Below the pieces are notes generated by a model. It saw nothing but the letters and a program-made list of their open reading frames with translations. It did no database searches and was not told the origin of the DNA. Of a stretch of DNA of 64,000 nt, positions 22,384-64,000 are shown one piece after another. A program made the translations under genes and the position numbers. The stretch is from an uncultured Gammaproteobacteria bacterium (GTDB lineage: Bacteria; Patescibacteriota; Patescibacteriia; Magasanikbacterales; GWA2-37-8). Numbering within the stretch: position 1 is the stretch's first letter; every line of letters starts with the position of its first letter. Location of the stretch: contig CAZHNI010000002.1 in the NCBI GenBank assembly GCA_964533715.1, forward strand, positions 46,496-110,495. Reading direction: 5' to 3'.

Positions 22384-24441
22384 ATGAAAAATATCATTGA
22401 ACGGATTGTTAAATTCTGTATCTACGCCACATTTTTTGTGCCGCTGGTGGTGGTACCGTCGTCGTTTATTTTTCCGTTTATTGTCCCCAAAATTTTGTTA
22501 TTTCGCGCCCTGGTTACTATAATGCTTGCTGGTTACATTTTGCTTTTAGCTGTAGATTTTGAATCGTATCGGCCAATTCGTTCTATTTTGTCGTTATCTG
22601 TTTTGTTGTTCTTGTTAAGTTTTGGTTTGTCAACTTTTTTAGGCGTGGATGCCTACCATAGTTTTTGGGACAACCACGAACGCATGTTGGGCCTGTTTAC
22701 TATTACTCACTATATTATTTATTTTTTTATTTGTGGCGCCGTGCTGCGAAGCTGGTCGGATTGGAAGTGGGCGTTGCGCCTATTTTTATTGGCTGGTTCC
22801 ATAGTAATGTTTATTGCAGTTTTGCAAAAAGGCAATCCAGAATTACTCTTAAACCAGGGTAGCGACCGCACCGCAAGCACGCTTGGCAATGCAATTTATG
22901 TGGGCGGTTATGGTTTGTTTTTGTTTTTTGTTTCCTTGCTTCTTTTTACCAAGGATAAAATAACAAGTTGGCGGTTTGCCTATGGTTTAGCGGGTATTTT
23001 GGCCATACTTGGTATATTTTTTAGTGGCACGCGCGGATCAGTTATTGGTTTATTGGCAGGCTTGTTTGTAACTATTGTGGGTTATTTAATTATTATAAAA
23101 AATCACGCTCGCGTGCGGTATAGTTTACTTGGCATTTTAGGACTTGTAGTCTTTGGTGTCCTCGTATTGTATGCCAATCGTAATTCAGCGTGGGTGGAAT
23201 CATTGCCGGCCATCGGTCGTTTGTCCGCCACTTCGTTTTCTGATATTAAAAACGGCACTCGTTTTATTGCTTGGCAAATTGCTTGGCAAAGCGCGGCCGA
23301 AAAGCCTTTTTTTGGCTGGGGGCCCAACAACTTTTTTTACGCGTTTAACAAATATTACAATCCACGCTCGCTGGAATTTGGTTATGGCGAAACCTGGTTT
23401 GATAATGCCCACAATATTATTCTTAACACGCTTACCGTACAAGGGTGGTTCGGTCTTATAGTATATCTTTCTGTTTTTGGCGTGGCCGGAGTTGTTTTGT
23501 GGAGAAACAAAAATTTTCGTGAAAGCCAGCCGCACGTAGTGGTTATTGGATCTGCTTTTTTGTTTGCACATTTAGTGCAGAATATTACGGTTTTTGAAAA
23601 CCCCACTTCATATTTGTACTTTATGTTTTGGCTGGCGCTCGTGGCGCAGAGCACAACCGCGGTTGTTAAAAGTGATGAGAATAATATTCAAAAAATAAAA
23701 ACAGCCGCAGCGTCGCAGCCGGTTGGGATCGGCGCGGTTGTGCTCACTGGGCTGGCAGCGTTGGCGGTAATTTTTGTTTTTGAAATTCAACCAGCTCGCG
23801 CTAATATTAAAACACTCGACGCACTTAACGCTTTTGCGACAGACCCGACAACCGGGTTCGCTGTTATGCAGGAAACTCTAAAATTTAACTCTCCCCATAT
23901 TGATGATATTAGAAGCGACCTTGCCCGCATGGTGGTTGACTTGGTTGGGAGATATTATCAAAAATTAGGCAAAGAGCAGTCAGTGCAATTTATTGATTTT
24001 ACTCGAACTTCACTTGAAGAGAATGTTAAACTTCACCCTTTGGATATTCGTAACAACATGACGTTAACGCAGCTTAACCAGCTTAGTTACGCCATTACGA
24101 ATGATCCGCGTTTTATAGTGTCCGCACACGAATACCTTGTAGACGCATTAAGTAAGAGCCCGCGGCGCCAACAACTTATGTATATGTTGGCAAGCATTAA
24201 ATTGCAGCTCGGTCGCAAAGATGAAGCAATACGCCTAATGGAACAATCAATTGAAGAAGACCAGAAAATTTCTGAAGGTTACTGGCGTTTAGCTTTTATC
24301 TACCAGTTTATTGGCGACACAATTCGTGCCAGAGCCACTCTTGGTTTGGCTCATGAGCGGGGAGTAGTATTTGACGCTCAGGGTCAAGATGTTGAAACCC
24401 AGATTATGGCTGGACTTGGAAAGAACGGTACAAAGAAGTAG
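22384..24441 (+). CDS. O-antigen-ligase-domain membrane protein with C-terminal TPR repeats (paralog of 16620-18890)
   Basis: Motifs GTRGSVIGLLAGLFV, FFGWGPNNFFYAFNKYYNP and WFDNAHNIILNTLTVQGWFGL. TPR-like C-terminus. Confidence 0.75.
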   Translation: MKNIIERIVKFCIYATFFVPLVVVPSSFIFPFIVPKILLFRALVTIMLAGYILLLAVDFESYRPIRSILSLSVLLFLLSFGLSTFLGVDAYHSFWDNHERMLGLFTITHYIIYFFICGAVLRSWSDWKWALRLFLLAGSIVMFIAVLQKGNPELLLNQGSDRTASTLGNAIYVGGYGLFLFFVSLLLFTKDKITSWRFAYGLAGILAILGIFFSGTRGSVIGLLAGLFVTIVGYLIIIKNHARVRYSLLGILGLVVFGVLVLYANRNSAWVESLPAIGRLSATSFSDIKNGTRFIAWQIAWQSAAEKPFFGWGPNNFFYAFNKYYNPRSLEFGYGETWFDNAHNIILNTLTVQGWFGLIVYLSVFGVAGVVLWRNKNFRESQPHVVVIGSAFLFAHLVQNITVFENPTSYLYFMFWLALVAQSTTAVVKSDENNIQKIKTAAASQPVGIGAVVLTGLAALAVIFVFEIQPARANIKTLDALNAFATDPTTGFAVMQETLKFNSPHIDDIRSDLARMVVDLVGRYYQKLGKEQSVQFIDFTRTSLEENVKLHPLDIRNNMTLTQLNQLSYAITNDPRFIVSAHEYLVDALSKSPRRQQLMYMLASIKLQLGRKDEAIRLMEQSIEEDQKISEGYWRLAFIYQFIGDTIRARATLGLAHERGVVFDAQGQDVETQIMAGLGKNGTKK

Positions 24442-25567
24442 TTTTGTTTATCATTTCTGCGAGTGAAGGCAAAGGAGGTGCGTTTTTGGCAAGTTCTTTC
24501 ATTTTTTCAGGGTGCTCAGCAGCCCAAACCAGCGCTTCGCTTAATTCTTCAATTGAATCCGGTTGTACCAACAGGCCGGATTTTTTATTTTCAATTAATT
24601 CGGGGATCCCGCCCACACGTGTGGCGATAATTGGGACATGCGCCCTCAGTGCTTCTAAGAGAACATACGGCAAACCTTCTTTGCGGGAGGGGAGAACAAA
24701 AGTTGAAAATTTGGTCAGAAATTGCGCTGCATTTTCTGTTTGGCCCTTCAAAAAGATATTTGCACCAAGATTGTATTCAGCAATCAATTTTTGGATATAT
24801 TTTTTTTCTGGTCCATCACCGTAAATTAAAAATAAACTGTTATGTAATTTAATTTTCGCTTTGGCGACCGCTTTAATAAGTACATCAATACCTTTTGTTT
24901 TGTATAAATTAGCAATGGTACCAAAATATATTTTCGGTAATTGATTTAGTGGGTCCGCGTTCGGCAAAAGATTGGCTTTTCCGTCAGCAAGTGGGTTAAT
25001 TCCGTTTTGCACTAAGTGTATTTTTTCTTTTGGTATACCAATTGTCGTTCCACGCTCAGCGTCATGCTTTGAGAGCGTAATAATAGCCGACTTATCCAAA
25101 GCGGTAGATTTTTCTAAATAGCGGTACAGCGCTTGTCGCCACGACGCAAGTGGTTCATCAAATACCCAGCCGTGAACTGTATACACAATGTGCGGGCGCA
25201 GAGCTTTGGGTAGTCTTCGCGCCGCATACGAACCAATTACGCCAGCTTTGGAACTGTTTAAATGAACAATTCCAGGTCCAAAATTTTTATACAATTTTCT
25301 TAATTCCCATACCGCTCGAATATCGTCCCAAAGAGAGATGTTTCTTACTAAGTATTTTAATTGGACAATTTTAATTTTTTTTGTTAGTTGTTCATTGTTA
25401 ATTGTTAATTTATGTTGCAAATCTCTTCCTCCACTCGGTTCTCCCACCGCCACCGTTACCTCAAATTCAGGTCCCAAATTGGTGGCCAAATCAAACACAT
25501 AGCGTTGCGCACCACCCCACTCGCTTTGAGTAATAACGTACAGAATTTTTATCTTGGTGTGTAACAT
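24404..25567 (-). CDS. Glycosyltransferase, GT4 family
   Basis: N-terminal ILYVITQSEWGGAQRYVFDLA and C-terminal EGLPYVLLEALRAHVPIIATRVGGIPELI. Overlaps the convergent upstream gene by 38 nt. Confidence 0.8.
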   Translation of the reverse strand: MLHTKIKILYVITQSEWGGAQRYVFDLATNLGPEFEVTVAVGEPSGGRDLQHKLTINNEQLTKKIKIVQLKYLVRNISLWDDIRAVWELRKLYKNFGPGIVHLNSSKAGVIGSYAARRLPKALRPHIVYTVHGWVFDEPLASWRQALYRYLEKSTALDKSAIITLSKHDAERGTTIGIPKEKIHLVQNGINPLADGKANLLPNADPLNQLPKIYFGTIANLYKTKGIDVLIKAVAKAKIKLHNSLFLIYGDGPEKKYIQKLIAEYNLGANIFLKGQTENAAQFLTKFSTFVLPSRKEGLPYVLLEALRAHVPIIATRVGGIPELIENKKSGLLVQPDSIEELSEALVWAAEHPEKMKELAKNAPPLPSLAEMINKTTSLYRSFQVQP

Positions 25568-25735: not shown

Positions 25736-26671
25736 ATGACCATAGTAGTAACTGGTGGGGCAGGGTTTATTGGTTCTCACCTGTGTGACCGTCTTGTGGC
25801 CGAAGGGCATCGTGTAATTTGTGTTGACAGTCTTTTTACTGGTAGCCGTGCCAACATTGCCGCTTTGCTGTCTAGCAAAAACTTTTCTTTTCTTGAACAT
25901 GATATTGTTCATCCTTTATTTATTGAAGAGAAAATTGATCAGATCTATAACTTGGCTTGTCCGGCCTCAACTATTCAGTATCAAGAAAACCCAGTGCACA
26001 CTATTAAGGCTAATACACTTGGCGTTATTAACATGCTGGGGTTAGCGCGTAAACATAAGGCTCGTTTTTTGCAAACATCTACTTCCGAAGTGTATGGTGA
26101 TCCAGAAATTCACCCGCAGACAGAAGAGTACCGTGGCAATGTAAACCCGGTTGGTCCGCGGGCCTGTTACGACGAGGGCAAACGTTGTTCCGAAACTCTT
26201 TGTTTTGATTATCATCGTATGCATGGTATGGAAATAAAAGTGGTGCGTATTTTTAACACTTATGGACCGAGAATGGCGTTTGACGACGGGCGTGTTATTT
26301 CTAATTTTATAATCCAAGCTCTTCGAAATGAACCAGTAACAGTATATGGCGATGGGAGCCAAACGCGCAGCTTTTGTTATGTGGATGATTTAGTAGATGG
26401 GCTCATTAAGATGATGAACAGTGATAAAACAATAACCGGGCCGATTAATCTTGGTAACCCAGGTGAACGTAGCATGCGCGAGATGGCCGAAAAAGTTATT
26501 GCACTTACAAAATCAAAAAGTGTCATTGTTAAGCGTAGTCTACCCACCGATGACCCGCGTCGACGTTGCCCAGATATAACTAAAGCACGTGAGCTGCTTA
26601 GTTGGCAGCCAAAAATCAAAATGGAAGATGGGCTTACAAAAACAATCGCCAATTTTAAATCACGACTCTAA
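25736..26671 (+). CDS. UDP-glucuronate decarboxylase / UDP-xylose synthase-like NAD-dependent sugar-nucleotide epimerase/dehydratase
   Basis: Motifs [39 protein letters not shown] and [10 protein letters not shown]. Closely resembles UXS/ArnA-type decarboxylases. Confidence 0.8.
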
Positions 26672-26687
26672 AGTGGACAGCTACGCT

Positions 26688-28382
26688 ATGCGCCTTTCCA
26701 ATCGAATTCGCACGTATGTTTCCCAAAATAAAATATTGGCTATCACCCTGTTGTTAGCCAGTTTTTTTATTTTTTTCCGAATCTCTCACGTCGATATGCT
26801 CGGCGATGACGCACATTACAGCGTGCGATCCATTGGTCTTGTGGATTTTATGTTTTCGGATGTGGAATTTCAACCCACCCCCCTACAGTGGTTTGATCAG
26901 ATGCCTCTTTGGGCACGCCTATCCTTCCACGACCATCCCTTGGTGCTTTTTATTATTCAACATTTCTTCTTAACAATTCATCTCAGTATATTTTTTTCCA
27001 AGTTGCCGTATGCACTCATGGCTCTTGGAACAATGTTTGTTACGTATACATGGATTAAAAAATTATTTGGACAGCGCGTTGCTGAGCTAAGCGCCGCGCT
27101 GTTCCTTCTCAACGCACATTTTATATGGCAGGGCAGAGTGGCTTTTATGGAGAGCGGCGTTCTATTTTTTATTTCACTTGCGTGCTATTATTTTATTTTA
27201 TTTCTCGAGAATCCTAAAAAGTGGCTGCGATTTGGTTTCTTTTTAGGTCTGCTTGTGGAAGTAAAATTTACCACTCTTTTTATTTTTCCGGCGTTTCTTA
27301 CCTATCTTATTATCAAAAAACGTTCATTTTTTAGAGATGTCCGGTTGTATTATGCGGCTCTTGTGGCTGTTCTCGTTGTTTTACCAGTAGTTATTTACAA
27401 CGTGGCTATGTATAGTGCGCGCGGGCATTTTGCCCTGCAGTTAGCCAGACTATTTCATCAATCGGCAAGCCCCTGGCATTTATCAGGAGTAGGGGCCTCA
27501 AGTGGAGTTGGTTTTTTTGGTTATTTCTCTTTTCTTGGCGGGCTTATTTCATATCCGTTTCTGGTTATTTTTGTTTTATCAATTATTTACACCCTTATTT
27601 TTCGGCGCGATGCCTTGCTTATTCATTTGGCGCTAGGTTTTTTTATTGTCGAAGACTTGCTTATAGGTGCGCGTGATTTGTATCCTGTTTTTGCTGCTTC
27701 GCTTACCGCTATCGCCGGGTATGATTTATCTCAGCGTTTGGCTTTAAAACACGCTAAGTTAAGGCGATTTTTTTTGGGATTTGCAGTGGTGTTTAGCGCG
27801 TATCTGCTTTTTTTTATGGCGCGTAGTATTACTTTATTTTCTCCTCAAAATAAAATATATGCTGGTTGGTTGCAATCCAGCGAACCGATGATTAATGTGG
27901 GGGTTGCCCAGATGGATTCGTATCTCAATTCGCTTATAGCTCGCGACCACTCGCTTACTTTTTTGGATGGTTATGGAGATTTAAAATTAAAACAAAATAA
28001 TTTACAAAAATATCTTTTGCGTTTGACTACGGACGAGTTGGAACAAAAGCAGTCACATGCTCGCATTATTATTTTTGATGGCAATATTAATTGGTTTGCG
28101 CGGGTGTGGTTGTTTGAACGGCGGCGGTTTTACCAAAATGTACCCATTTTTTCGCTTAATGAAAAACAAATTTTAGACCAGCTTTCGTTGGAAGATTATT
28201 ATTTTATCAAAGTAACCGAAGACGGTCCGCTTGATCCATATCGTACTCCAAATGGAGAGGCGACCGAGCAGAATATTACGGCGCTTGGAATTAAACCCGA
28301 TTTAGTTTACCGGAATGATGGTAAAGTCGCGTTCAAAATATATCATGTGAGTCAGGGGTCGATACCAAAAAAATATGATTAA
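26688..28382 (+). CDS. Polytopic membrane glycosyltransferase, GT39/GT83 (PMT / ArnT-like) family
   Basis: About 12 TM helices in the N-terminal half and a soluble C-terminal domain. The start is the ATG at 26688 (MRLSNRIR...); the listed extension overlaps the upstream gene. Confidence 0.6.
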   Translation: MRLSNRIRTYVSQNKILAITLLLASFFIFFRISHVDMLGDDAHYSVRSIGLVDFMFSDVEFQPTPLQWFDQMPLWARLSFHDHPLVLFIIQHFFLTIHLSIFFSKLPYALMALGTMFVTYTWIKKLFGQRVAELSAALFLLNAHFIWQGRVAFMESGVLFFISLACYYFILFLENPKKWLRFGFFLGLLVEVKFTTLFIFPAFLTYLIIKKRSFFRDVRLYYAALVAVLVVLPVVIYNVAMYSARGHFALQLARLFHQSASPWHLSGVGASSGVGFFGYFSFLGGLISYPFLVIFVLSIIYTLIFRRDALLIHLALGFFIVEDLLIGARDLYPVFAASLTAIAGYDLSQRLALKHAKLRRFFLGFAVVFSAYLLFFMARSITLFSPQNKIYAGWLQSSEPMINVGVAQMDSYLNSLIARDHSLTFLDGYGDLKLKQNNLQKYLLRLTTDELEQKQSHARIIIFDGNINWFARVWLFERRRFYQNVPIFSLNEKQILDQLSLEDYYFIKVTEDGPLDPYRTPNGEATEQNITALGIKPDLVYRNDGKVAFKIYHVSQGSIPKKYD

Positions 28383-29505
28383 AAAACGTATTCTCATTTT
28401 TTCTACCGCGTATTTCCCGCTTGTCGGCGGAGCAGAAGTAGCGGTTAAAGAAATTACCGACCGTCTCCCCGAGTTTGAGTTTGTCATGATTACCGCTAGA
28501 ATTAAACCGGAATTCCCTGAAGTTGAGCAAATTGGCAATATTCAAGTTCACCGTATTGGACTTGGTAATCAATGGGACAAATTTCGCCTTATTTTAAACG
28601 GCTCGAAAAAAGCTAAAGAGTTAGGAAAATTTGATGCAGTGTGGTCAATTATGGCGAGCTACGCCGGTTTTGCCGCGCTTAGATTCAAGAAAAAAAATAA
28701 ACAGGTGCCATTTTTGTTAACGCTTCAGGAAGGGGATAGCCGTTTCCAAATTTATAAACACGTGTGGTGGTGTTGGTGGTATTTTAAACACATTTTTAAA
28801 AAAGCCGATAAAATCCAAGCGATTAGCAGCTATTTGGCACGTTGGGCAAGGCAGCTTGGTGCCAACGCCGAAACAATTGTAGTGCCGAATGGTGTTGATG
28901 TTCAAAAGTTCGCCTTTAATAATTCACAATCAGGAGCGCGAAACGAATTATTAAACAAACTCAATATTCCGCCCCAAGCAAAAATTGTTTGTACTATTTC
29001 TCGCCTAGTTAAAAAAAATGGAGTTGGCCCACTTATCAAATCACTCCAATATTTAAATCCTTCTGTTCATTTATTAATTTTAGGGAGTGGTGAACTGGAG
29101 CAGAACCTCAAAGCCCTTGCGCTAAAGCTGGGTCTTTCGGGGCGAGTTCATTTTTTAGGCAATACTCCTCATAATGTCCTGCCCCAGTACTTAGCAGTAA
29201 GTTCGGTATTTTGTCGCCCCAGCTTGTCGGAAGGTCTTGGAGTAGCCTTTTTGGAGGCTATGGCAGCAGGTGTGCCAGTGGTAGCGCCGGCAATTGGCGG
29301 TATCCCGGATTTTTTACTGGATGGTGAAACGGGTCTTTTTTGTAAAGTTAATAACCCTAAAGATATTGCCGAAAAAATTGAGCGAGTTTTAAATGACGAG
29401 ATGTTGGGAACTAGGCTCCGCGAAACAGGGCGAAAACTGGTTGAGCTTAAATATACTTGGGAGAGCGTTACTCGCCAAATGAAAAATATTTTTGAAAAAT
29501 TATGA
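28375..29505 (+). CDS. Glycosyltransferase, GT4 family
   Basis: EGLGVAFLEAMAAGVPVVAPAIGGIPDFL. ATGA overlap with the upstream gene. Confidence 0.8.
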   Translation: MIKKRILIFSTAYFPLVGGAEVAVKEITDRLPEFEFVMITARIKPEFPEVEQIGNIQVHRIGLGNQWDKFRLILNGSKKAKELGKFDAVWSIMASYAGFAALRFKKKNKQVPFLLTLQEGDSRFQIYKHVWWCWWYFKHIFKKADKIQAISSYLARWARQLGANAETIVVPNGVDVQKFAFNNSQSGARNELLNKLNIPPQAKIVCTISRLVKKNGVGPLIKSLQYLNPSVHLLILGSGELEQNLKALALKLGLSGRVHFLGNTPHNVLPQYLAVSSVFCRPSLSEGLGVAFLEAMAAGVPVVAPAIGGIPDFLLDGETGLFCKVNNPKDIAEKIERVLNDEMLGTRLRETGRKLVELKYTWESVTRQMKNIFEKL

Positions 29506-37529: not shown

Positions 37530-37537
37530 TTTTTATT

Positions 37538-54959: not shown

Positions 54960-54998
54960 AATCAAAACCGTCCAGATGATTTCTGGACGGTTTTGATT
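54960..54998. terminator. Perfect 15-16-bp hairpin (ATCAAAACCGTCCAG-atgattt-CTGGACGGTTTTGAT) between two minus-strand genes, at the edge of the high-GC islet
   Basis: Inverted repeat read directly. Likely the terminator of the high-GC gene ending at 55058. Confidence 0.5.
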
Positions 54999-55057
54999 AG
55001 TGCTCGAGGGGGGTGGAAACCTCAGGGGGATGTCGAGCGGCATCGTGAGGGGGGGCT

Positions 55058-55894: not shown

Positions 55895-56044
55895 GTGCTT
55901 GCCCTCCTTGTGGGCGTTTTGGGTCAAAATTTTGCTTAGCAAAAATTAAAGCACCCCTCATTTTATCATATAATAAGGTTTTTGTCAATTCGCGATCATC
56001 GATTCGTTTAAAATTTTTAACCCGCTAGTTTTTCTTGATAAATT

Positions 56045-56053: not shown

Positions 56054-56098
56054 ATGGTACTCTTAACTCAGATTAGATTGAAAGAAATTACCTTAAAT

Positions 56099-56831: not shown

Positions 56832-58148
56832 ATGTCTTCCAAACCACACATTAAAGAATTGCTAAAAAAGCGGCACGATCTAATTCCGGGTGCTGCTCAT
56901 ACCTACTCCAAAGGCGACGACCAATTTCCAGCCAACGCCCCCAAAGCCATGCTAAAAGGCAAGGGCGCTTATGTGTGGGGAGATGATGGTAAAAAATATC
57001 TTGATTGGTGCATGGGGCTTAGATCAGTATCGCTTGGACATGGTTATTCAACAGTTGTTAAAGCGGTGTCCAAAATAATCAAAGACGGAACTAACTACGG
57101 TCGTCCCCATATTTCTGAGTTTGCCTTGGCTAACAAAATTACAAAAATTATTCCATATGCGGAAATGGTAAAATTTGCTAAAAACGGCTCTACCGTTACC
57201 ACCGCCGCCACCAAACTGTCTAGGGCCTTTACTGGTAGAAAATATATCGCTGTGTGTAGTAGCCATCCTTTTTTTAGCTATGACGATTGGTTTATTGGTA
57301 CTACCCAATGCGACGCCGGAATTCCCGAGGAGATTAAACAATTGACGCTAACTTTCAAATACAACGATATCGACAGCGTTGAAAAATTGTTTGCGGAACA
57401 TCCCAAAGAAATAGCCTGCGTTATAATGGAGGTTGTAACCACCGACGAGCCGCAAAATAATTTTTTGCAAAAAGTTCAGGATATAACCAAGCGCAATGGC
57501 GCCGTGTTTATTTTGGATGAGATGATTACCGGTTTCCGTTTTGATTTGCAGGGCGCCACTAAATTATATGGGTTAAAGCCTGATTTAATAACATATGGCA
57601 AAGGCATCGCCAATGGTTTTTCTTTGGCAGTGTTAGCGGGCCGCAAAGACATTATGGAATTAGGTGGGCTCAAACACAAAAAAGAAAGGGTGTTTCTTAT
57701 TTCCACTACTCACGGCGCGGAAACTTCCGCCCTAGCAGCGGCCAGCGAAACAATCCAAGAAATGAAAAAGAAAAGAATCCAACAACATTATTGGAAGATG
57801 GGAGGTAAGCTACGCAAAGGCCTGGCAGACTTAATAAAAAAACATGGTTTGTCGAAGAATTTGGATTTAATTGGGTTTGCCCCAAATTTGAGTTTGAATT
57901 TTAAGGACAACTCTGGCACTGTGTCGTTTGTTTATAAATCAATTTTTTTACAGGAAATAATCAAGCGCGGTATTCTCTTTCAGGGTTATTTTGCAATTTC
58001 TTTTTCCCATAAAGAAGCTGAAATTAAACACACGATAAAAGTTTTTGACGAAGCTATGAAAACTTTTAAACAGATAATTTCAACAGGTAACCCAGAAAAA
58101 TATTTGTTAGGCGAGGCGGTTAAGCCGGTCTTCAGAAAATATAATTAA
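56832..58148 (+). CDS. Class-III PLP-dependent aminotransferase (glutamate-1-semialdehyde 2,1-aminomutase-like)
   Basis: Motifs YVWGDDGKKYLDWCMG, FILDEMITGFRF and YGKGIANGFSLAVLAGR (PLP-Lys region). Confidence 0.75.
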   Translation: MSSKPHIKELLKKRHDLIPGAAHTYSKGDDQFPANAPKAMLKGKGAYVWGDDGKKYLDWCMGLRSVSLGHGYSTVVKAVSKIIKDGTNYGRPHISEFALANKITKIIPYAEMVKFAKNGSTVTTAATKLSRAFTGRKYIAVCSSHPFFSYDDWFIGTTQCDAGIPEEIKQLTLTFKYNDIDSVEKLFAEHPKEIACVIMEVVTTDEPQNNFLQKVQDITKRNGAVFILDEMITGFRFDLQGATKLYGLKPDLITYGKGIANGFSLAVLAGRKDIMELGGLKHKKERVFLISTTHGAETSALAAASETIQEMKKKRIQQHYWKMGGKLRKGLADLIKKHGLSKNLDLIGFAPNLSLNFKDNSGTVSFVYKSIFLQEIIKRGILFQGYFAISFSHKEAEIKHTIKVFDEAMKTFKQIISTGNPEKYLLGEAVKPVFRKYN

Positions 58149-58155
58149 TTGAGGT

Positions 58156-58956
58156 ATGCAAAAAGGTGTGGTAAGGGTCGCATTGGCACAAATGAACGTT
58201 GAATGGGAAGACAAAACAAAAAATCAAACAACGTGTGAAGAACTGGTTGCTAAAGCCGCTAACCGCGGGGTTGATATTGTGATATTTCCGGAAATGACTT
58301 TGACCGGATTCTCAATGAACGTTGCTAAGGTCGGGGAGTTAAACAATCGGAGCCAAACCACAAGATTTTTTGCAGATTTGGCAAGTAAATACAAACTGGG
58401 TATAGTTTTTGGTGTGGTAGAGAAAACACTCTCGGCTAAGGGGGCCAATACGGCAATCTTTGTAGATAGATCTGCTCGCGTCAAGGCGCGTTATCAAAAA
58501 ATTCATCCCTTCAGTTTTTCTGGAGAGCACAAGCATTTTATTTCGGGTGAAAAACTATCTTTTTTTACAGTCAACGGACTAAGATTTGTTTTGGCAATCT
58601 GTTATGATCTTAGATTCCCCGGAATGTTTGAAGCCATATCTAGATATAAACCGGATGCCACGATAGTGATTGCTAACTGGCCACAACAACGAATTAGTCA
58701 TTGGAAGACGCTTCTTTGTGCCCGTTCGCTGGATTTACAAAGTTATGTCATCGGAGTTAACCGGCTAGGGGATAGCCCCGTTGGAAAATATAACGGAGAA
58801 TCAACCGTGTATGATCCCGGAGGTAAAGCAATACTAAAATTAAACAATAAGGCGGGGGTTGGATATGTAGATTTGAAAAAGGCCGATGTTTTAGAGGCTC
58901 GAAGAAAATTTCCTTCTGTTAAAGACAAGAAGTTTTCTGTATATAAGAATCTGTAA
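58156..58956 (+). CDS. Carbon-nitrogen hydrolase (nitrilase superfamily)
   Basis: Motifs VALAQMN, DIVIFPEMTLTGF, KIHPF and AICYDLRFP (catalytic Cys). Confidence 0.75.
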   Translation: MQKGVVRVALAQMNVEWEDKTKNQTTCEELVAKAANRGVDIVIFPEMTLTGFSMNVAKVGELNNRSQTTRFFADLASKYKLGIVFGVVEKTLSAKGANTAIFVDRSARVKARYQKIHPFSFSGEHKHFISGEKLSFFTVNGLRFVLAICYDLRFPGMFEAISRYKPDATIVIANWPQQRISHWKTLLCARSLDLQSYVIGVNRLGDSPVGKYNGESTVYDPGGKAILKLNNKAGVGYVDLKKADVLEARRKFPSVKDKKFSVYKNL

Positions 58957-58958
58957 TT

Positions 58959-59960
58959 TTGGTTCTATTATTTATGAATAAAAGGCTGGTTACTATTGTT
59001 ACATACCACTACGTTCGCGATTTAAAGAATTCTCGCTACCCGGCAATAAAGGGGCTGACAGTCTCTGATTTTAAAGAGCAGCTTTCTTATATTAAACGTC
59101 ATTATGAGGTTGTCTCCATGGAGTCGATCCTCAATGCCGTTGTTTACGGTGGTGATTTGCCGACCAATTCACTATTGCTTACCTTTGATGATGGTTATGC
59201 CGACCACTTTAACACGGTATTTCCTATTTTGGATGACCTTGGTTTGCAAGGAAGTTTTTTTCCTCCATTTAAGGCGGTATTAGAGCACGAAGTTTTGGGT
59301 GTAAATAAGGTACATTTTATTTTGGCCACAGTATTAGATCGTAAAAAATTGTTGCGCGAAATTTTTTCAGAATTAAACGTGTATCGTAAAAGTAATAAAA
59401 TAGAAAGCAACCAGTATTTTGTTGACATGATCACAAAAGATCATCGCTTTGATGACCGGGAAACTCTGGTTGTAAAACGGTTGTTGCAGAGGGAAATTCC
59501 TGAAAAGATTCGGGGTGGCATCGTCGATAAGCTATTTAAAAAATATGTCACCTCTGACGAAGCATCCTTTGCCAGTGAACTTTATGTAACTATGGATCAG
59601 TTGCGGTGTATGAAAAAAAATAATATGTATATTGGTGGCCACGGATATAGCCACTCCTGGTTGGGGCGTCTAAATCCGATCGAGCAAAAAAAAGAAGTTA
59701 AACTTATGATTAAAAATCTTAAGGCTGTCGGCGCAGATACAAAACGCTGGGTGATGTGCTTCCCGCACGCCTCATATAACGATTCTCTCATCCAAATATT
59801 AAAAGAAAACGGCTGTGTTGTGGGTTTGGATGTGGTTCAAAGAGTCGCCAACTTGGATAGCGACAACACCTTTCTTTTACCCAGGCTAGATACCAACGAT
59901 TTGCCGCACAAAGCCTCGGCTAAACAGGATAAATGGATAAAAAACTATGATGTTTGCTAA
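58959..59960 (+). CDS. Polysaccharide deacetylase (NodB / CE4 family)
   Basis: LLTFDDGYADHFNTVFPIL and HGYSH motifs. Confidence 0.75.
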   Translation: MVLLFMNKRLVTIVTYHYVRDLKNSRYPAIKGLTVSDFKEQLSYIKRHYEVVSMESILNAVVYGGDLPTNSLLLTFDDGYADHFNTVFPILDDLGLQGSFFPPFKAVLEHEVLGVNKVHFILATVLDRKKLLREIFSELNVYRKSNKIESNQYFVDMITKDHRFDDRETLVVKRLLQREIPEKIRGGIVDKLFKKYVTSDEASFASELYVTMDQLRCMKKNNMYIGGHGYSHSWLGRLNPIEQKKEVKLMIKNLKAVGADTKRWVMCFPHASYNDSLIQILKENGCVVGLDVVQRVANLDSDNTFLLPRLDTNDLPHKASAKQDKWIKNYDVC

Positions 59961-61737
59961 CAACAAAATAGTAAGGGCGTTCAGAATTTTTCGGCGCGCT
60001 TATGGCGAGTACAAATATCGCGCATTGCTCCAAGTGGCTTTGAGTTTTGCCAACTCAGTTTTGGAGGGTGTTGGTATTACGGCCATTATTCCTATATTTT
60101 CGTTCATCGTAAAAAATCAGAATCCAAGCAGTGATTTTATTTCTAATATTATCTCTCGTGTTTTCGGTTATTTTAATATAGCCTTTAGCCTGCGTTATCT
60201 GCTTGTTTTTGTAGCTTTTCTATTATTTAGTAAGGTTGTGGTTTTATTTTTAGCTAATTATTTAGCTGCTAAGATGGCCGCAGAGTACGAGTCTAGGACC
60301 CGAGACAGGTTATTGTCCGCTACCCTTTCAGCCAATTGGTCAGTGCTATCAAAACAAAAGATTGGGCATCTAGACCAAGTTGTCACTACAGATGTGATAA
60401 ATGCATCCAGCTTGCTTCTGAATCTCAATACATTTTTACTTTTCTTGGCGCAGCTGATAACTTATACGCTCGTTGCGGTCAACATTTCTTTTGTTGTAAC
60501 TGTTCTTGTTGGAATTGTTGGGTTGCTTATACTCTTTGTATTTAAAAAATACTTTTATCTTAATAAAGTTGTTGGAAGACAAGGCGAGCAGCTGTATAAA
60601 AAAGTTGCTCATTTTATCAATCAAAATGTTTTGGGTTTAAAAACGGTTAAAGCCATGGCGGTAGAGGACAGCGTAATTAAAGAAGGGGTTGGTTATTTTG
60701 GTGAACTAAGAAGGATTAATATTAAGACGGCAGTTTTTCGTAATATTACCACAATTTTTATTCAGCCGATCGGGATTTTGTTTGTCATTGGTGTCTTCAC
60801 TTATTTATATAAAACAACTAACTTTAATTTTGCATCTTTTGTTGTTATTATTTTTGCCATCGGTCGAATTTTCACACAAATTCAGACAGGACAAACCCAG
60901 CTGCATAATATTATCGGTTTAGTTCCATATCTTCAGAACATACTTAATTATACAGACTTGATGGAAGGTGGGCGGGAAGAGACAACCGGCGCTCTGTCTT
61001 TTGTAATGAATGTAGGATTGGAATTTAAAAATGTTAGCTTTTCCTATCCGGGACGCGACTTGGCAATTTCCGATGTAAGCTTCCTGCTTAAAAAAGGCGA
61101 GCTCACCGGGCTTATTGGTCCATCGGGTGCTGGTAAAACCACGATCGCTGATTTGTGTCTTCGTTTGTTTTACCCTGTGGAAGGAAAAATTTTGCTAGAC
61201 GCGGTAGACAGTAGGGGGGTCAGCCTCAAGGAATGGCGTAAAAACATCGGCTATGTTTCTCAGGATAACGTGCTGATCAACGATACTGTTGAGGCGAATA
61301 TCCGTTTTTATGATAGTTCTATTTCCGAGAATGATGTGATGGCGGCGGCGCGCAGTGCTTATATTTATGATTTTATAAAAAGCATGCCAAATGGTTTTTC
61401 CACCGTAATCGGTGATCGCGGAATCGATTTATCAGCCGGTCAACGTCAAAGGGTTATGTTGGCTCGGGTTTTGGCTCGTCGACCGCGCATGCTCATTCTA
61501 GACGAGGCCACCAGCGCTCTGGATAATGAATCCGAGGATTATATTCAGAATGTAATAAATAATTTACGAGGTTCCGTAACTGTTTTAATAATTGCACACC
61601 GACTTTCTACGATAATTAATTGTGATAATTTATTGGTTCTAGATCGAGGAAAAATTGCCGAAAGTGGTTCCCCGCAATCATTGCTAAGTGATGAAAGCAG
61701 CTATTTTTTTAAGATGTATAATATTAAAGTCAAGTAA
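59947..61737 (+). CDS. ABC transporter, fused permease/ATPase (MsbA-like exporter)
   Basis: Six N-terminal TM helices. Walker A GPSGAGKTT, ABC signature LSAGQRQR and Walker B ILDEATSALD. Confidence 0.85.
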   Translation: MMFANNKIVRAFRIFRRAYGEYKYRALLQVALSFANSVLEGVGITAIIPIFSFIVKNQNPSSDFISNIISRVFGYFNIAFSLRYLLVFVAFLLFSKVVVLFLANYLAAKMAAEYESRTRDRLLSATLSANWSVLSKQKIGHLDQVVTTDVINASSLLLNLNTFLLFLAQLITYTLVAVNISFVVTVLVGIVGLLILFVFKKYFYLNKVVGRQGEQLYKKVAHFINQNVLGLKTVKAMAVEDSVIKEGVGYFGELRRINIKTAVFRNITTIFIQPIGILFVIGVFTYLYKTTNFNFASFVVIIFAIGRIFTQIQTGQTQLHNIIGLVPYLQNILNYTDLMEGGREETTGALSFVMNVGLEFKNVSFSYPGRDLAISDVSFLLKKGELTGLIGPSGAGKTTIADLCLRLFYPVEGKILLDAVDSRGVSLKEWRKNIGYVSQDNVLINDTVEANIRFYDSSISENDVMAAARSAYIYDFIKSMPNGFSTVIGDRGIDLSAGQRQRVMLARVLARRPRMLILDEATSALDNESEDYIQNVINNLRGSVTVLIIAHRLSTIINCDNLLVLDRGKIAESGSPQSLLSDESSYFFKMYNIKVK

Positions 61738-61811
61738 TCATTTTGGTTGGAGGGGAAAGATCGGCGTAAATTTATCGAAACAATATATCAACTTCATTTA
61801 TAGAATATACT

Positions 61812-62546
61812 ATGGAGAAAAAAACTATTTTGGCAATCATCCCTGCTCGCTCTGGCTCTAAGCGTATTCCTAATAAAAACATTAAGAAATTTTTAGGCAA
61901 ACCATTGATCGCTTACACTATAAAGCAGGCCTTATCTAGCCCTCTGGTTGACCGTGTAATTGTTGATACGGATTCCGATGAAATCGGAAAAATTGCCAGG
62001 CATTTTGGCGCTGAAGTTCCATGGCTTCGCCCGAAAAAACTGGCTTCAGACAAAGCCAATGTTGTTGATAGTATATTGTATACGTTGAAAAGGCTTTCTG
62101 CAGAAGAAGGTTATCACCCCACACACTTAATGGTTTTGCAAACCACCTCACCGCTCAGAGAACAAGAAGACATTGAGGCGTGTTGGAATCTTTTGAAAAA
62201 AACTAAAGCCACCACAGTTTTAACTGTCGCGCCCACCCACCCAAAGCTGTATCATTTGTCAAAGTACCAAGACACCATTTTGGTAAACGGTTCGGAGAAA
62301 CACTCCAACAATACCCAGACCTGGGAGCCGGCCTATATTCTAAACGGATGTACTGTATATATAGTCGAGGTAAAAGCGTTGTTAAGGGAAAAGCGGGTAA
62401 TTACCGAGAAGACTAAAGCAGTTATCTTGCCAAAATGGCGCTCCGTTGATTTGGATACACCGGAAGAATGGGTGATGGCGGAACTTTTTTATAAAAATAA
62501 AGACTTTATTAAACGGCGGATTAAGTACATTGTAAACAAGGTATGA
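61812..62546 (+). CDS. Acylneuraminate cytidylyltransferase family protein, copy 2
   Basis: ILAIIPARSGSKRIPNKN and LQTTSPLR motifs. Confidence 0.8.
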   Translation: MEKKTILAIIPARSGSKRIPNKNIKKFLGKPLIAYTIKQALSSPLVDRVIVDTDSDEIGKIARHFGAEVPWLRPKKLASDKANVVDSILYTLKRLSAEEGYHPTHLMVLQTTSPLREQEDIEACWNLLKKTKATTVLTVAPTHPKLYHLSKYQDTILVNGSEKHSNNTQTWEPAYILNGCTVYIVEVKALLREKRVITEKTKAVILPKWRSVDLDTPEEWVMAELFYKNKDFIKRRIKYIVNKV

Positions 62547-63481
62547 GAATAGGAATCATCGGTTTCGGTTCGGCGGGGGAACGCCATTATAATAATTTAC
62601 AAAAATATACCAAAGACATCGTTGTTTTTTCTAAGAGAAAAGATGTTAATGTATCTTGTTTGGTAAATGATTGGGGGGAATTCAAAAAATTCGGGCCATT
62701 TGATTTGGTTTTTATTACGAACGAAACACATAAACATGTCCAGACAATTAAGAAGTGTTTAAAGATGGGTTTTAGAGCTTTTTTTGTTGAAAAACCGATT
62801 TCACACAATTTACGCGGTCTAGCCGCCCTGCGCAGGCTAGTGCATCAGAAAAAAATTATTTTGTGGGTCGGCTATAATCGACACTTCTACCAACCGCTCA
62901 TAGAAATTAAAAAGTTTATTCAAGGAAATAAGCTTGGAAAAATTTATTATTTACGTGTCTCCATCGGTCAAAATCTCAAGGACTGGCGTCGGCGTGATTA
63001 CCGGCTTACTTACTCATCCAAAAAAGAACAGGGGGGCGGAGTGATGTTGGATTTGGTTCATGAAATAAATTATGCGGGTTGGATGCTCGGTGAGACCCTA
63101 GAGCCAAAGGCCGGAGTCAACCGTAAATTGTCTAATCTAGAAACCGATGTAGAAGATTGTGCGGAAAGCCTGCTGGTATCAAAAAATGGCACTATTGTTT
63201 CTATTCATCAGGATTATTTAAATACAGTATTAAAATGGAGTGTTGAAGTGGTTGGCTCGAGTGGCAATATAAATTGGGAAAGACGTGACAGGAAGATCAT
63301 TTTTCAAAATGACAAGAAAACTATCGTTAGGCCAGTTTTTGCTGAGTATAATAAAATGTTTGAGGCAGAGTTAGTTTATTTATTTAAAATGCTTGGAAAA
63401 AAGAAGTTTTTTACCAACATAGATGAAGCTTGTCGTGATATTGAAATTATTGAAAAACTTAAACGCTATGGACAGAAATAA
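62543..63481 (+). CDS. Gfo/Idh/MocA-family NAD(P)-dependent oxidoreductase
   Basis: N-terminal Rossmann motif RIGIIGFGSAGERH and the family-typical EKP motif. Confidence 0.7.
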   Translation: MRIGIIGFGSAGERHYNNLQKYTKDIVVFSKRKDVNVSCLVNDWGEFKKFGPFDLVFITNETHKHVQTIKKCLKMGFRAFFVEKPISHNLRGLAALRRLVHQKKIILWVGYNRHFYQPLIEIKKFIQGNKLGKIYYLRVSIGQNLKDWRRRDYRLTYSSKKEQGGGVMLDLVHEINYAGWMLGETLEPKAGVNRKLSNLETDVEDCAESLLVSKNGTIVSIHQDYLNTVLKWSVEVVGSSGNINWERRDRKIIFQNDKKTIVRPVFAEYNKMFEAELVYLFKMLGKKKFFTNIDEACRDIEIIEKLKRYGQK

Positions 63482-64000
63482 TTTTATTTTTTTGCACGTT
63501 GGTCTTGGCTCAATGGGGAAAAGACGAATTAGAAATTTATTGCACTGCGGTATAAGCCGTGATAAAATTTTTGGTTTTGATTTTTCCGAAAATCGCGCTG
63601 ATGAAGTGGCGAAGGAGTATGGTATTAAGACCTTCAGCAATTTTGAGAGGGCGGTGGCTGAGACCAAGCCCAGCGCGCTTATTATTTCCACCCCTCCAAA
63701 CCAACACCATTCATATTTTTTGTTTGCCGCCAAAAATAAAATTAATTTTTTTGTTGAAGTAACAACTCGGGAAGATGGCTATGATGAACTTTTTTCGTTG
63801 CTCGATGATTCTTTTGTGGCGGCGCCATCTTGTACGTACCGTTATTTTCCGGCCGTAAAAAAGATGAAAGAAGTTATAAACTCAAATATCATCGGAAGAC
63901 CGCTCTCGTTCAATCACTACTTGGGTCAATATCTGCCAGATTGGCACCCGTATGAAGACTATCGTAAAGTATACTTTGCTCAGAAAGATACTGGCGGCTG
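63468..64000 (+). CDS. Second Gfo/Idh/MocA-family oxidoreductase (5' part only; runs off the window end)
   Basis: Open frame from the ATG at 63468 (MDRNNFIFLHVGLGSMGKRRI...) to the window end, overlapping the upstream stop. Not in the ORF table because it has no stop inside the window. Confidence 0.6.
   Translation, partial: MDRNNFIFLHVGLGSMGKRRIRNLLHCGISRDKIFGFDFSENRADEVAKEYGIKTFSNFERAVAETKPSALIISTPPNQHHSYFLFAAKNKINFFVEVTTREDGYDELFSLLDDSFVAAPSCTYRYFPAVKKMKEVINSNIIGRPLSFNHYLGQYLPDWHPYEDYRKVYFAQKDTGG

Follow-up and report, generated by a model that had tools for sequence, protein, structure and literature searches.

The protein O-glycosylation cluster of Tannerella forsythia spans 27 kb; besides wzx, asnB and either pse or leg genes, it comprises five glycosyltransferase and three methyltransferase genes (PMC6120980). 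It is the closest known system to the locus analysed here, which lies at 24404-64000 of a 64,000-nucleotide stretch (the window; contig CAZHNI010000002.1, positions 46,496 to 110,495 of the forward strand) from an uncultured bacterium of the Magasanikbacterales, within the Patescibacteria or candidate phyla radiation (CPR). Here such a cluster is combined with lipid-linked decoration of the Gtr/Arn/Pgf type. In both loci, nonulosonate genes are clustered with glycosyltransferases, methyltransferases and an AsnB-type amidotransferase. The T. forsythia genes form one polycistronic locus with a dedicated nonulosonate transferase (BFO_1060/Tanf_01245 family), and the product is placed on S-layer and other surface proteins. 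The published T. forsythia glycan is reported to include xylose along with methylated sugars and a uronamide; these would correspond to the uridine diphosphate (UDP)-glucuronate decarboxylase (UXS), the methyltransferases and the AsnB genes of the window. We consider it likely that the region is a composite envelope-glycan locus of three cooperating modules, which continues past the window end.

The two loci also differ. The window has an ATP-binding cassette (ABC) exporter instead of Wzx, with no Wzx/MOP-family match among the scanned open reading frames (ORFs) of at least 100 amino acids (aa). It has seven GT4 glycosyltransferases compared with the five of gtfSMILE, and adds an extracytoplasmic layer of GT2, GtrA and GT-C proteins as well as a Gfo/Idh/MocA pair, a class-III aminotransferase and a C-N hydrolase. 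T. forsythia is a Bacteroidete whereas the window belongs to a Patescibacterium, and the match to the BFO_1060 family is weak (1.3e-9, 37.7 bits versus a cutoff of 200).

The extracytoplasmic layer resembles the three-component Gtr, Arn, Ppm1-Pmt and Streptococcus mutans PgfS-PgfM-PgfE systems in having a GT2 polyprenyl-phosphate synthase, a small flippase and a GT-C transferase. Further parallels to Arn are the UXS (ArnA decarboxylase), a carbohydrate esterase family 4 (CE4) protein (ArnD) and an EamA protein (ArnE/F); we know of no lipid A in this lineage. Unlike these systems, the window has four GT-C enzymes, one of them without a sequence model, and its third GT2 carries a fused CapK/PaaK domain and is conserved together with AsnB and methyltransferases.

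The UDP-linked legionaminic acid pathway is known from the lipopolysaccharide (LPS) cluster of Legionella pneumophila and from sps of Bacillus subtilis, on a monoderm surface; the Campylobacter legionaminic branch uses guanosine diphosphate-linked precursors (PMC7439481). In the O-antigen cluster of L. pneumophila Sg6, an aminotransferase of the same annotation as that of the window lies beside a NeuA-like gene (PMC3694923). The order WbuX-HisF-HisH-cytidylyltransferase-NeuB-NeuC-acetyltransferase-DegT of two Legionella loci (L063 and L068 in our numbering of comparison loci) is mirrored by CPR relatives of the window, in whose cassettes, unlike in Legionella, the cytidylyltransferase is separated from NeuB by one or two Gfo/Idh/MocA genes. 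The window itself differs in that WbuX and HisFH are not found upstream of the cytidylyltransferase, and in that the synthase genes lie outside it.

For the Gfo/Idh/MocA genes, the nearest precedent is ElaA of the ElaABC 8-epi-legionaminic module (Acinetobacter baumannii KL49), a Gfo/Idh/MocA enzyme that oxidises the C8-OH of the cytidine monophosphate (CMP) sugar CMP-Leg5,7Ac2 and for which 3EZY was reported as the nearest solved structure (PMC13656337). Both loci place a Gfo/Idh/MocA gene beside a cytidylyltransferase, and 3EZY is also the nearest structure to the first such protein of the window. In contrast, the second redox partner in the window is another Gfo/Idh/MocA protein, with no short-chain dehydrogenase/reductase (SDR) partner, whereas ElaC is an SDR; and the aminotransferase in the window operon suggests amination as an alternative outcome.

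Organization and integrity of the locus

Gene content was determined by Pfam, NCBIfam and PDB sequence searches. The region contains 36 ORFs and is 98% coding. One gene on the minus strand is followed by 24 co-directional plus-strand genes (25736-52456) with a maximum gap of 36 nt and nine overlapping junctions. The 168-nt divergent gap 5' of this operon has promoter-like sites on both strands. Three minus-strand genes (52.4-56 kb) separate it from a second plus-strand run of eight genes, from 56054 to the window end. Our results confirmed the very large surface-glycan locus that the initial annotation of the DNA had proposed; it occupies at least 40 kb and runs past the window end. The operon it described, joined by 4-nt overlaps, was recovered as a packed co-directional run, but exact 4-nt overlaps occur at only three junctions in the whole region.

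The gene inventory was largely reproduced. Domain and PDB searches found the three GT2s, the three PMT_2-type (GT39/ArnT-like) transferases, UXS, the epimerase and GtrA, as well as the two AsnB proteins, the class-III aminotransferase, the C-N hydrolase, the CE4 protein, the MsbA-like exporter, two NeuA-family proteins and two Gfo/Idh/MocA proteins. Pfam counted seven GT4s where about ten had been given, and five of the six methyltransferases, the sixth being recognised by hhalign only (94%). Three genes or domains had been missing from that inventory: a KpsC/BFO_1060-like transferase, the EamA membrane protein and the PaaK/CapK domain on the third GT2. Rfam and tRNA scans of the window gave no match.

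A patchwork of pseudogenes, raised earlier as a possible refutation, was ruled out because the domain matches span the Pfam models nearly end to end and the checked catalytic motifs are intact. The paralogs are old: the GT4s are 22-32% identical to one another, the two AsnB proteins 28% and the two cytidylyltransferases 43%. This divergence (22-43% identity) fits a complex hetero-glycan rather than recent amplification. An LPS O-antigen locus was also rejected, given the absence of LPS genes and the Patescibacteria lineage.

The nonulosonic acid branch

The genes at 52.4-64 kb assigned to this branch are as follows (TM, transmembrane segments).

52458-53957 (-): KpsC/BFO_1060-like protein, candidate CMP-nonulosonate transferase (Capsule_synth 1.5e-8)
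54062-54898 (-): EamA/DMT-type membrane protein, 9-10 TM, candidate flippase/transporter (EamA weak, 5.5e-4)
56054-56821 (+): NeuA/PseF-clade cytidylyltransferase 1 (CTP_transf_3 2e-26; PseF 153 bits versus about 65 for KdsB)
56832-58148 (+): class-III aminotransferase, HemL-like, PRK06209-type (NF004856 576 bits, cutoff 486)
58156-58956 (+): Nit2/Nit3-like C-N hydrolase, candidate omega-amidase (CN_hydrolase 4.5e-37; YafV-type model 135 bits)
58959-59960 (+): CE4 polysaccharide/sugar de-N-acetylase (Polysacc_deac_1 2.2e-17)
59947-61737 (+): ABC exporter with fused transmembrane and nucleotide-binding domains, MsbA/PglK/HepA type, candidate lipid-linked glycan flippase (ABC_membrane and ABC_tran)
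61812-62546 (+): NeuA/PseF/LegF-clade cytidylyltransferase 2, CMP-nonulosonate synthetase (PseF 177 bits, cutoff 205.7, versus KdsB 63)
62543-63481 (+): Gfo/Idh/MocA oxidoreductase 1, Gfo_1 (Pfam; top PDB match 3ezy; 49% identical to its ortholog in L001)
63468-64000 (+): Gfo/Idh/MocA oxidoreductase 2, Gfo_2, cut by the window end (Pfam; 72% identical to its ortholog in L001, where NeuB-NeuC follow)

As judged from profile scores, both cytidylyltransferases belong to the NeuA/PseF clade and not to KdsB. The KdsB models reached 34-65 bits on the window proteins (best-model cutoff 193). Consistently, solved NeuA structures match both proteins over their full length (9ftb, 1.9e-29 for cytidylyltransferase 2), whereas PDB KdsB matches only residues ~7-75. 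The KdsB identity that the initial annotation had named as a possible refutation was thus ruled out by the scores of at most 65 bits and the match to only the N-terminal ~70 residues.

We scanned 185,579 species genomes and found 50 Patescibacteria-type loci with an ortholog of cytidylyltransferase 2 (50-72% identical); across Patescibacteria, orthologs are 60-75% identical. Synteny was counted in the 38 CPR loci having at least 5 kb downstream of the ortholog. NeuB and/or NeuC lie within 7 kb downstream in 35 of the 38 (33 each), and gene-order reading placed them within 10 kb in two more. A Gfo_2-type gene directly follows the cytidylyltransferase in 30 of the 38. The usual CPR cassette reads (KpsC-like, minus strand, in some) HisF, HisH, WbuX, cytidylyltransferase, one or two Gfo, NeuB, NeuC, (PglD-like), DegT, PseB-like. 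In two loci (L001, L090) the cytidylyltransferase-Gfo-Gfo triad is arranged as in the window and is followed by NeuB-NeuC-SDR-PseB-like; the 4-nt and 14-nt gene overlaps of the L090 triad are identical to those of the window. In relatives, the triad is thus immediately followed by NeuB, NeuC, a PseB/PglF-like dehydratase and DegT, so that the earlier proposal to look past 64000 for such genes is very probably right. The nonulosonic acid reading is strongly, if indirectly, supported. We expect with high confidence that NeuB and NeuC follow position 64000.

The NeuC of the relatives scored 390 bits (cutoff 236), and their NeuB 354-381 bits (cutoff 400) versus 216-229 for PseI; PseB-like, DegT and NeuD/PglD-like genes are also present. 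These NeuC/NeuB genes, their model scores and the Legionella-like gene order point to a pathway that would be of the UDP-linked legionaminic (NeuC/NeuB) type rather than pseudaminic. In 24 of 39 relatives, the cytidylyltransferase is preceded by a WbuX gene with HisH/HisF (WbuX model 388 bits in the one representative scanned). The tail of the window has no WbuX or HisFH; cytidylyltransferase 1, the class-III aminotransferase, the C-N hydrolase, CE4 and the ABC exporter are found there instead.

These data bear on the earlier comparison with the Campylobacter pse/ptm flagellin-glycan loci. A likeness exists in the NeuA-family activation and in the amidino and methyl modifications that such sugars carry there. 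However, no Maf, flagellin or PseBCHGI was found among the scanned ORFs, and the relatives encode NeuC/NeuB, not PseG/PseI. A Campylobacter-type pse/ptm island, which would have a WbuX-type PseA, Maf, flagellin and Pse enzymes, was rejected. PseA belongs to the WbuX/PP-loop family. Describing the window amidotransferases as PseA-like was wrong at the family level, because both are AsnB-type (TIGR01536) and WbuX is not in the window; PseA-type enzymes were rejected for this pair. Rather than PseA, the AsnB enzymes have as their precedent T. forsythia Tanf_01265 and those AsnB homologs that form uronamides.

Several other genes of the branch recur in the same context. The KpsC-like gene is separated from the operon end by a 1-nt spacer, and its BLAST orthologs (37-50% identity) adjoin the nonulosonate cassette in 18 CPR loci. 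Its family profile matches KpsC (6mgb, 1.6e-12) across the CMP-binding KxHP motif ('yvKeHP'); a single-sequence AlphaFold model had a predicted local distance difference test score of 35 and was unusable. The BFO_1060 family takes its name from a protein homologous to the nonulosonate transferases of T. forsythia (PMC5420450). EamA-like homologs (39-42% identity) lie beside nonulosonate cassettes in L001, L028 and L031, and an EamA-domain gene closes the cassette of L090. CE4 genes adjoin the cytidylyltransferase again in L090, L008 and L030. The ABC exporter, whose NCBIfam matches are all below cutoff (HepA 301, MsbA 282, PglK 222 bits), is 49% identical to an ABC gene within a Magasanikbacteria nonulosonate cluster (L003). 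An ortholog of cytidylyltransferase 1 (57% identical) stands after Aminotran_3 and before NeuB-NeuC in L054.

The C-N hydrolase matched 3p8k, yeast Nit3 (9e-17) and mouse Nit2 (8e-16) in the PDB. Homologs of the aminotransferase, 49-52% identical, were found in two Bacillota metagenome-assembled genomes, one with the operon Aminotran_3-Gfo/Idh/MocA-CN_hydrolase (L057 1209-4459, minus strand) and one with Aminotran_3-Gfo/Idh/MocA-CTP_transf_3 (L060 7481-10666, plus strand). From these operons, Aminotran_3, Gfo, CN_hydrolase and the cytidylyltransferase therefore form a recurrent cross-phylum sub-module, and the aminotransferase/Gfo/C-N-hydrolase trio looks like a recurrent uncharacterised nonulosonate-modifying set shared across phyla.

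Some further observations concern the comparison loci. The WbuX-type amidotransferase of a Magasanikbacteria locus (L003 7752-9008) is 73-74% identical to those of Legionella norrlandica and L. pneumophila (L063 7210-8583, L068 2760-4163), and the genes neighbouring it are only 31-52% similar to their Legionella counterparts, which suggests that the WbuX gene may have been exchanged recently between Legionella-like bacteria and CPR. Radical-SAM/SPASM enzymes and sulfotransferases lie among or beside cytidylyltransferase, NeuB and NeuC in L089 (3681-8661) and L090 (1648-2547), a hint that Patescibacteria may make nonulosonic acids that are sulfated or C-modified. Several TPA_asm records, L006 (CAYFPJ010000002.1) among them, have typical Patescibacteria gene content and a cytidylyltransferase 60-72% identical to that of the window, yet are titled 'uncultured Gammaproteobacteria' or 'Saccharibacteria'; these are likely placeholder or wrong labels.

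A conserved module for lipid-linked sugars

The second half of the long operon contains the following genes.

43407-43808 (+): GtrA-family small membrane protein, candidate lipid-linked sugar flippase (GtrA_DPMS_TM 5.8e-14)
43821-45989 (+): GT2 (residues 1-215) fused to a PaaK/CapK adenylate-forming domain (residues ~280-700), GT2-CapK (PDB and NCBIfam)
45995-46786 (+): S-adenosylmethionine (SAM) methyltransferase MT_c (Methyltransf_11 7e-23)
46791-48566 (+): AsnB-type amidotransferase b, AsnB_b (Asn_synthase 1e-85; MCG start, Cys2 and SGGLDS)
48578-49156 (+): SAM methyltransferase MT_d (Methyltransf_11 4.9e-10)
49164-50057 (+): SAM methyltransferase MT_e with an N-terminal Cys4 ribbon (Methyltransf_11 4.5e-14)
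50042-51790 (+): membrane glycosyltransferase of a new family with predicted GT-C fold, 582 aa (no Pfam/NCBIfam model; predicted structure)

The N-terminal domain of GT2-CapK resembles 5mlz (1e-13) and ArnC (2e-12), with GtrB also among its solved relatives; the C-terminal domain resembles PaaK (4r1l, 1.5e-34) and scored 159 bits with the DVU_1553-family ligase model. The motifs DSD (at 93) and TSGSTG (at 380) are present. More than 120 full-length Patescibacteria homologs, 51-80% identical, carry Pfam CapK_C.

Three other Patescibacteria loci (L086-L088) share a conserved sub-module of GtrA, GT2-CapK, MT_c, AsnB_b, MT_e and the new GT-C. There GT2-CapK is 55-61% identical, MT_c (51-59%) lies directly 3' of the fusion gene, AsnB_b is 49-51% and the new GT-C 24-36% identical. 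MT_e orthologs (43-47%) are present in L086 and L087, and GtrA adjoins GT2-CapK also in L087 and L088. In these last two loci, the sub-module lies within 10 kb of a NeuB, DegT or KpsC-like gene. In the window, AsnB_b (TIGR01536, 440 bits) is spaced by gaps of 4-11 nt on either side. The top named homologs of cytidylyltransferase 2, GT2-CapK and the new GT-C come from Magasanikbacteria, Falkowbacteria, Parcubacteria, Buchananbacteria, Niyogibacteria and comparable groups, with a lone exception labelled Nanoarchaeota. Together with a sigma70 and DUF5667 gene pair upstream of the locus, they indicate a Patescibacteria (CPR) metagenome-assembled genome as the source.

The 582-aa protein has 139 homologs, and every one with a name is called hypothetical. 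Its GT-C fold was shown by structure prediction only, with AftA, AftD and ArnT among the top fold matches, and an acidic motif was found in the first external loop, as looked for in a GT-C transferase. The family profile matched nothing among PDB sequences, and hhalign against the three PMT_2 paralogs gave a probability of 6%. The predicted structure suggests that the protein represents a previously unrecognised family of GT-C membrane transferases confined to Patescibacteria.

The GT2-CapK/methyltransferase/AsnB/new GT-C module is conserved in Patescibacteria and uncharacterised. Its domains suggest that it probably makes a lipid-linked acidic sugar, with activation of the carboxyl group, amidation and methylation preceding transfer on the outer side of the membrane. 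Lipid-linked donors acting with ArnT-like transferases, proposed earlier from the letters of the DNA, are supported at the family and fold level by the three GT2s, GtrA and four GT-C enzymes.

Assembly and sugar-supply genes

The remaining genes of the operon, with the divergent GT4 gene, are listed below.

24404-25567 (-): GT4, divergent from the long operon (Glycos_transf_1 3.8e-37 and Glyco_transf_4)
25736-26671 (+): UDP-glucuronate decarboxylase (UXS), first gene of the 24-gene operon (PDB 4gll/2b69, human UXS1, E 2e-115, full length)
26589-28382 (+), likely start 26688: GT-C of the PMT_2 family (PMT_2 6.9e-16, PMT 3e-8; 9 predicted TM)
28375-29505 (+): GT4 (Glycos_transf_1 1.7e-42)
29502-30635 (+): GT4 (Glycos_transf_1 2.4e-33)
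30623-31591 (+): GT4 (Glycos_transf_1 1.9e-25)
31598-32209 (+): SAM methyltransferase MT_a (Methyltransf_11 2e-19; orthologs 54-64% identical in L086 and L047)
32215-33252 (+): GT4-type, with the C-terminal domain alone recognised (Glycos_transf_1 1.7e-15)
33256-33954 (+): short soluble GT2 of the polyprenyl-phosphate sugar synthase type, GT2_a (Glycos_transf_2 5e-36)
33945-35159 (+): divergent GT4-like protein (Glyco_trans_1_4 8.7e-11)
35162-36190 (+): CDP-tyvelose-2-epimerase-type SDR (PDB 9rl0 1.2e-91, 1orr 4.9e-88, full length)
36183-37529 and 37415-38986 (+): two PMT_2 GT-C transferases (PMT_2 3.2e-13 and 2e-9; 7-9 predicted TM)
38983-39711 (+): second short GT2, GT2_b (Glycos_transf_2 2.8e-26)
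39719-41590 (+), ORF opening at 39659 and true start MCG at 39719: AsnB-type amidotransferase a, AsnB_a (Asn_synthase 5e-81 and GATase_7)
41559-42239 (+): SAM methyltransferase MT_b (Methyltransf_11 3.3e-10)
42243-43370 (+): GT4 (Glycos_transf_1 6.5e-24)
51797-52456 (+): probable sixth methyltransferase, last operon gene (no Pfam match; hhalign 94% to the locus methyltransferases; BLASTP 1.6e-8 to MT_b)

The three consecutive GT4s at 28375-31591 share just 22-30% identity. The best PDB matches of GT2_a were dolichol-phosphate-mannose synthase (5mlz, 3.9e-19) and then ArnC, and its NCBIfam matches (AglJ, PgfS, PpgS) were all below cutoff; GT2_b was placed by NCBIfam only, with sub-cutoff matches to PgfS, ArnC and PpgS. 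AsnB_a scored 458 bits with TIGR01536 and contains Cys2 and SGGIDS. NCBIfam gave no match above cutoff for the GT4s, the Wzy_C-TPR proteins described below, GtrA, EamA or the 1241-aa secreted protein. A SAM synthetase (MetK) gene lies at 6721-7953, 17 kb upstream of the six-methyltransferase locus, which may be a coincidence.

Candidate acceptor and proposed pathway

Three genes upstream of or next to the locus encode candidates for the acceptor and the ligase.

12780-16505 (+): secreted Ser/Thr-rich S-layer-like protein, 1241 aa, candidate glycan acceptor (signal peptide ...VPSVAQA/AS; S 13%, T 11.6%)
16620-18890 (+): Wzy_C membrane domain with C-terminal TPR, candidate ligase/O-oligosaccharyltransferase (Wzy_C 5e-18; ~10 predicted TM)
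22384-24441 (+): second Wzy_C and TPR protein (Wzy_C 1.2e-21 and TPR)

The 1241-aa protein has no Pfam match. The Wzy_C family includes PglL-type O-oligosaccharyltransferases besides O-antigen ligases. A protein target is the most likely reading, at slightly under even chances, in view of these adjacent proteins, the BFO_1060-like transferase and the PgfS/AglJ-like GT2s; it is a reasonable guess that the glycan decorates the 1241-aa protein.

From the gene families, folds, intact motifs, operon packing and synteny we infer substrates, step order, acceptor and the genes beyond 64000 as follows. In the cytoplasm, the seven divergent GT4s of a first module would build a hetero-oligosaccharide on a lipid carrier, with UXS supplying UDP-xylose, the 2-epimerase another sugar, and an initiating phosphoglycosyltransferase encoded outside the window. 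The second module (52.4 kb to beyond 64 kb) would make a legionaminic-type sugar with NeuB, NeuC, a dehydratase and DegT encoded just beyond 64000, and cytidylyltransferase 2 would activate this nonulosonate to the CMP sugar. The Gfo pair could then oxidise the CMP-nonulosonate to a keto form, which may be re-reduced to an epimer, as with ElaA, or transaminated by the class-III aminotransferase. If amination occurs, the Nit2-like amidase would drive the transamination in the forward direction. Coupling of glutamine transaminases to omega-amidases is known, and we propose that it explains the presence of the C-N hydrolase. CE4 could make an exchange of N-acyl groups possible. Transfer of the CMP sugar to the glycan would fall to the KpsC/BFO_1060-like enzyme, and the PglK/MsbA-like ABC exporter would flip the lipid-linked product. 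In the third, extracytoplasmic module, the three GT2s would load single sugars on polyprenyl phosphate, GtrA and perhaps EamA would flip them, and the four GT-C enzymes (three PMT_2 and the new family) would transfer them to the acceptor outside the membrane. The final acceptor would most likely be a surface protein, the 1241-aa neighbour being the obvious candidate, with the Wzy_C-TPR pair as possible ligase/O-oligosaccharyltransferase.

Other genes lie around the candidate acceptor. An ECF-type sigma-70 gene and a DUF5667 membrane protein, likely an anti-sigma pair, are located at 10613-12543, directly upstream of the 1241-aa protein, and may regulate it. Secreted or anchored proteins with Ig-like, Glucodextran_B or DUF11 domains (1366-2937 and 8006-9745, both on the minus strand) are further candidate surface proteins.

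Alternative explanations

Several observations weigh against the three-module reconstruction. No homolog of NeuB, NeuC, DegT, PseB-like or WbuX was found by tblastn within the 64-kb window, and both cytidylyltransferases score below the PseF equivalog cutoff (153 and 177 versus 205.7 bits). The BFO_1060 match of the KpsC-like protein is far below its cutoff, and the two AsnB proteins also satisfy a generic model for asparagine synthases. The scanned ORFs include no initiating phosphoglycosyltransferase, UDP-glucose dehydrogenase, Wzx or LCP ligase; in relatives, Bac_transf and UDP-glucose dehydrogenase genes lie beside the nonulosonate cassette. The link to ElaA, an argument from analogy, rests on the shared nearest structure 3EZY, and the suggested acceptor on adjacency to a Ser/Thr-rich secreted protein and the Wzy_C-TPR proteins. 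The three modules might also serve different glycans.

With the same enzymology, the product could be a lipid-anchored or wall-linked polysaccharide (a lipoglycan, secondary cell-wall polymer or capsule) rather than a protein glycan. The Wzy_C-TPR proteins would then be polymerase/ligase, and the GT-C enzymes would add decorations to the polymer, much as O-antigen is glucosylated, teichoic acid glycosylated or arabinogalactan modified. This agrees with a Wzy_C family that includes O-antigen polymerases and ligases, with a PMT_2 family that includes ArnT, with top fold matches (AftA, AftD, ArnT) that act on glycans or lipids, and with KpsC being a capsule enzyme; the best NCBIfam matches of the ABC exporter are HepA and MsbA, and the best sub-cutoff matches of the GT4s include teichuronic-acid and exopolysaccharide enzymes. 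However, the scanned ORFs yielded no LCP ligase, Wzz, Wza or Wzx, the locus adjoins a secreted Ser/Thr-rich protein, and the TPR fusions, the PgfS/AglJ-like GT2s and the BFO_1060 match lean to protein targets. None of these opposing points is decisive, and we regard the polysaccharide as doubtful but the strongest competitor of the protein glycan. Somewhat less probable, and unlikely in our view, is a patchwork of independent adjacent clusters (the GT4/GT-C operon, the GT2-CapK module and the nonulosonate cassette). In relatives, the GT2-CapK module and the nonulosonate cassette occur in varying arrangements and can be apart, the strand switches at 52.4-56 kb, and a foreign GC-rich gene lies between the two parts. 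Against this, L087 and L088 again have the module close to nonulosonate or KpsC-like genes, only a 1-nt spacer parts the KpsC-like gene from the operon end, and the gene families recur together across loci.

Two narrower alternatives concern single enzymes. The AsnB genes could be ordinary asparagine synthetases for amino-acid supply, as both pass TIGR01536 (asn_synth_AEB; 458 and 440 bits versus a cutoff of 267). We consider this improbable, given two copies of low mutual identity inside a glycan operon, the tight spacing around AsnB_b, its co-occurrence with GT2-CapK and methyltransferases in three other loci, and the AsnB precedent in the T. forsythia glycan cluster (PMC6120980). The NeuA-like genes could activate 3-deoxy-D-manno-oct-2-ulosonic acid (Kdo) or another substrate, with no nonulosonic acid branch at all. 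The synthase gene missing from the window and the scores under the PseF cutoff would allow it, and KpsC, the nearest solved relative of the candidate transferase, uses CMP-Kdo. It is nevertheless hardly credible: PseF models outscore KdsB models on both proteins by a wide distance (153-177 versus 34-65 bits), only NeuA structures match along the full length, and orthologs of cytidylyltransferase 2 stand beside NeuB/NeuC in nearly all loci counted. The composite locus with a nonulosonic acid branch remains the reading we prefer.

Significance of the locus

CPR/Patescibacteria are ultra-small and largely uncultured bacteria with reduced genomes and a stripped-down metabolism, which are thought to live attached to hosts. 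Host recognition, susceptibility to phages and immune-like interactions are decided at their surface. At least 40 kb are spent here on a glycan with a sialic-acid-like sugar, about 4% if the genome is ~1 Mb, a size typical for the group. This expense and the 50 ortholog loci, most with a conserved cassette, argue that surface glycosylation is a core rather than an accessory trait, and the sugar coat very probably includes a sialic-acid-like (legionaminic-type) sugar.

Within the literature searched, we found no report of nonulosonic or pseudaminic acids in Patescibacteria. The initial annotation had called the pathway probably undescribed. This holds for the CPR context and for the module of GT2-CapK and the new GT-C. 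It does not hold for systems of this kind in general: nonulosonate-capped, methylated and amidated surface glycans and Gtr/Arn-type decoration are established in other bacteria. New or uncharacterised are the lineage and the scale, together with the added Gfo, aminotransferase and amidase genes, the module of GT2-CapK, AsnB and methyltransferases, and the GT-C family that has no sequence model. Testable enzyme candidates are provided by this GT-C family, by the fusion of GT2 with an adenylating domain, and by the aminotransferase/Gfo/C-N-hydrolase trio that recurs with NeuA-like genes in Bacillota.

A bolder proposal, which we offer tentatively and consider rather unlikely as a whole, is a Patescibacteria-wide undescribed envelope-glycosylation system with two new chemistries. 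In one, a legionaminic-type nonulosonate, oxidised by the Gfo/Idh/MocA enzymes while CMP-linked, would be epimerised or transaminated; the HemL-like aminotransferase would use glutamine, the Nit2-like omega-amidase would make the step irreversible, and the product could be an epi- or extra-amino (e.g. 5,7,8-triamino) nonulosonic acid. The other would yield an amidated, methylated polyprenyl-linked sugar: an acidic sugar from GT2-CapK, amidated by AsnB and methylated, might be delivered by the unmodelled GT-C onto an S-layer-like protein that mediates episymbiont-host contact.

GC-rich islands

Four gene-sized islands of 62-79% GC interrupt the ~40%-GC window (250-1200, 4400-5050, 19950-22010 and 55000-55900). 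They hold five ORFs, with a GC content at third codon positions (GC3) of 0.82-0.94 versus 0.35-0.44 in native genes.

270-1121 (+): pyrF-like orotidine monophosphate decarboxylase
4451-5059 (-): 202-aa ORF
19961-20746 (+): TPR lipoprotein-like gene
20750-22006 (+): Cys-rich 418-aa secreted protein with PPDLT repeats
55058-55942 (-): 294-aa helical protein of foreign type, inside the glycan locus (GC ~0.70, GC3 0.94)

The 294-aa protein has no Pfam match and no homolog in the fetched loci of relatives, and is probably not part of the glycan pathway. Its gene has a promoter-like site (55988-55960) and a perfect 17-nt hairpin (54960-54998). By tblastn against plasmids, nothing was found for this protein and only a 68-residue match for the 418-aa protein. 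The sequences flanking the islands are rich in AT and contain hairpins; no direct repeats were found to border the islands. In the AT-rich spacer just upstream of the 19950 island, an imperfect inverted repeat of 56 nt with AAATTGG repeats (19783-19905) is 73% complementary. The best relatives of the pyrF-like gene are 57-60% identical to it, and at least one island ORF is present in the NCBI deposit. The islands may have been acquired through several horizontal transfers, with the host as a possible high-GC donor, or may be products of assembly chimerism.

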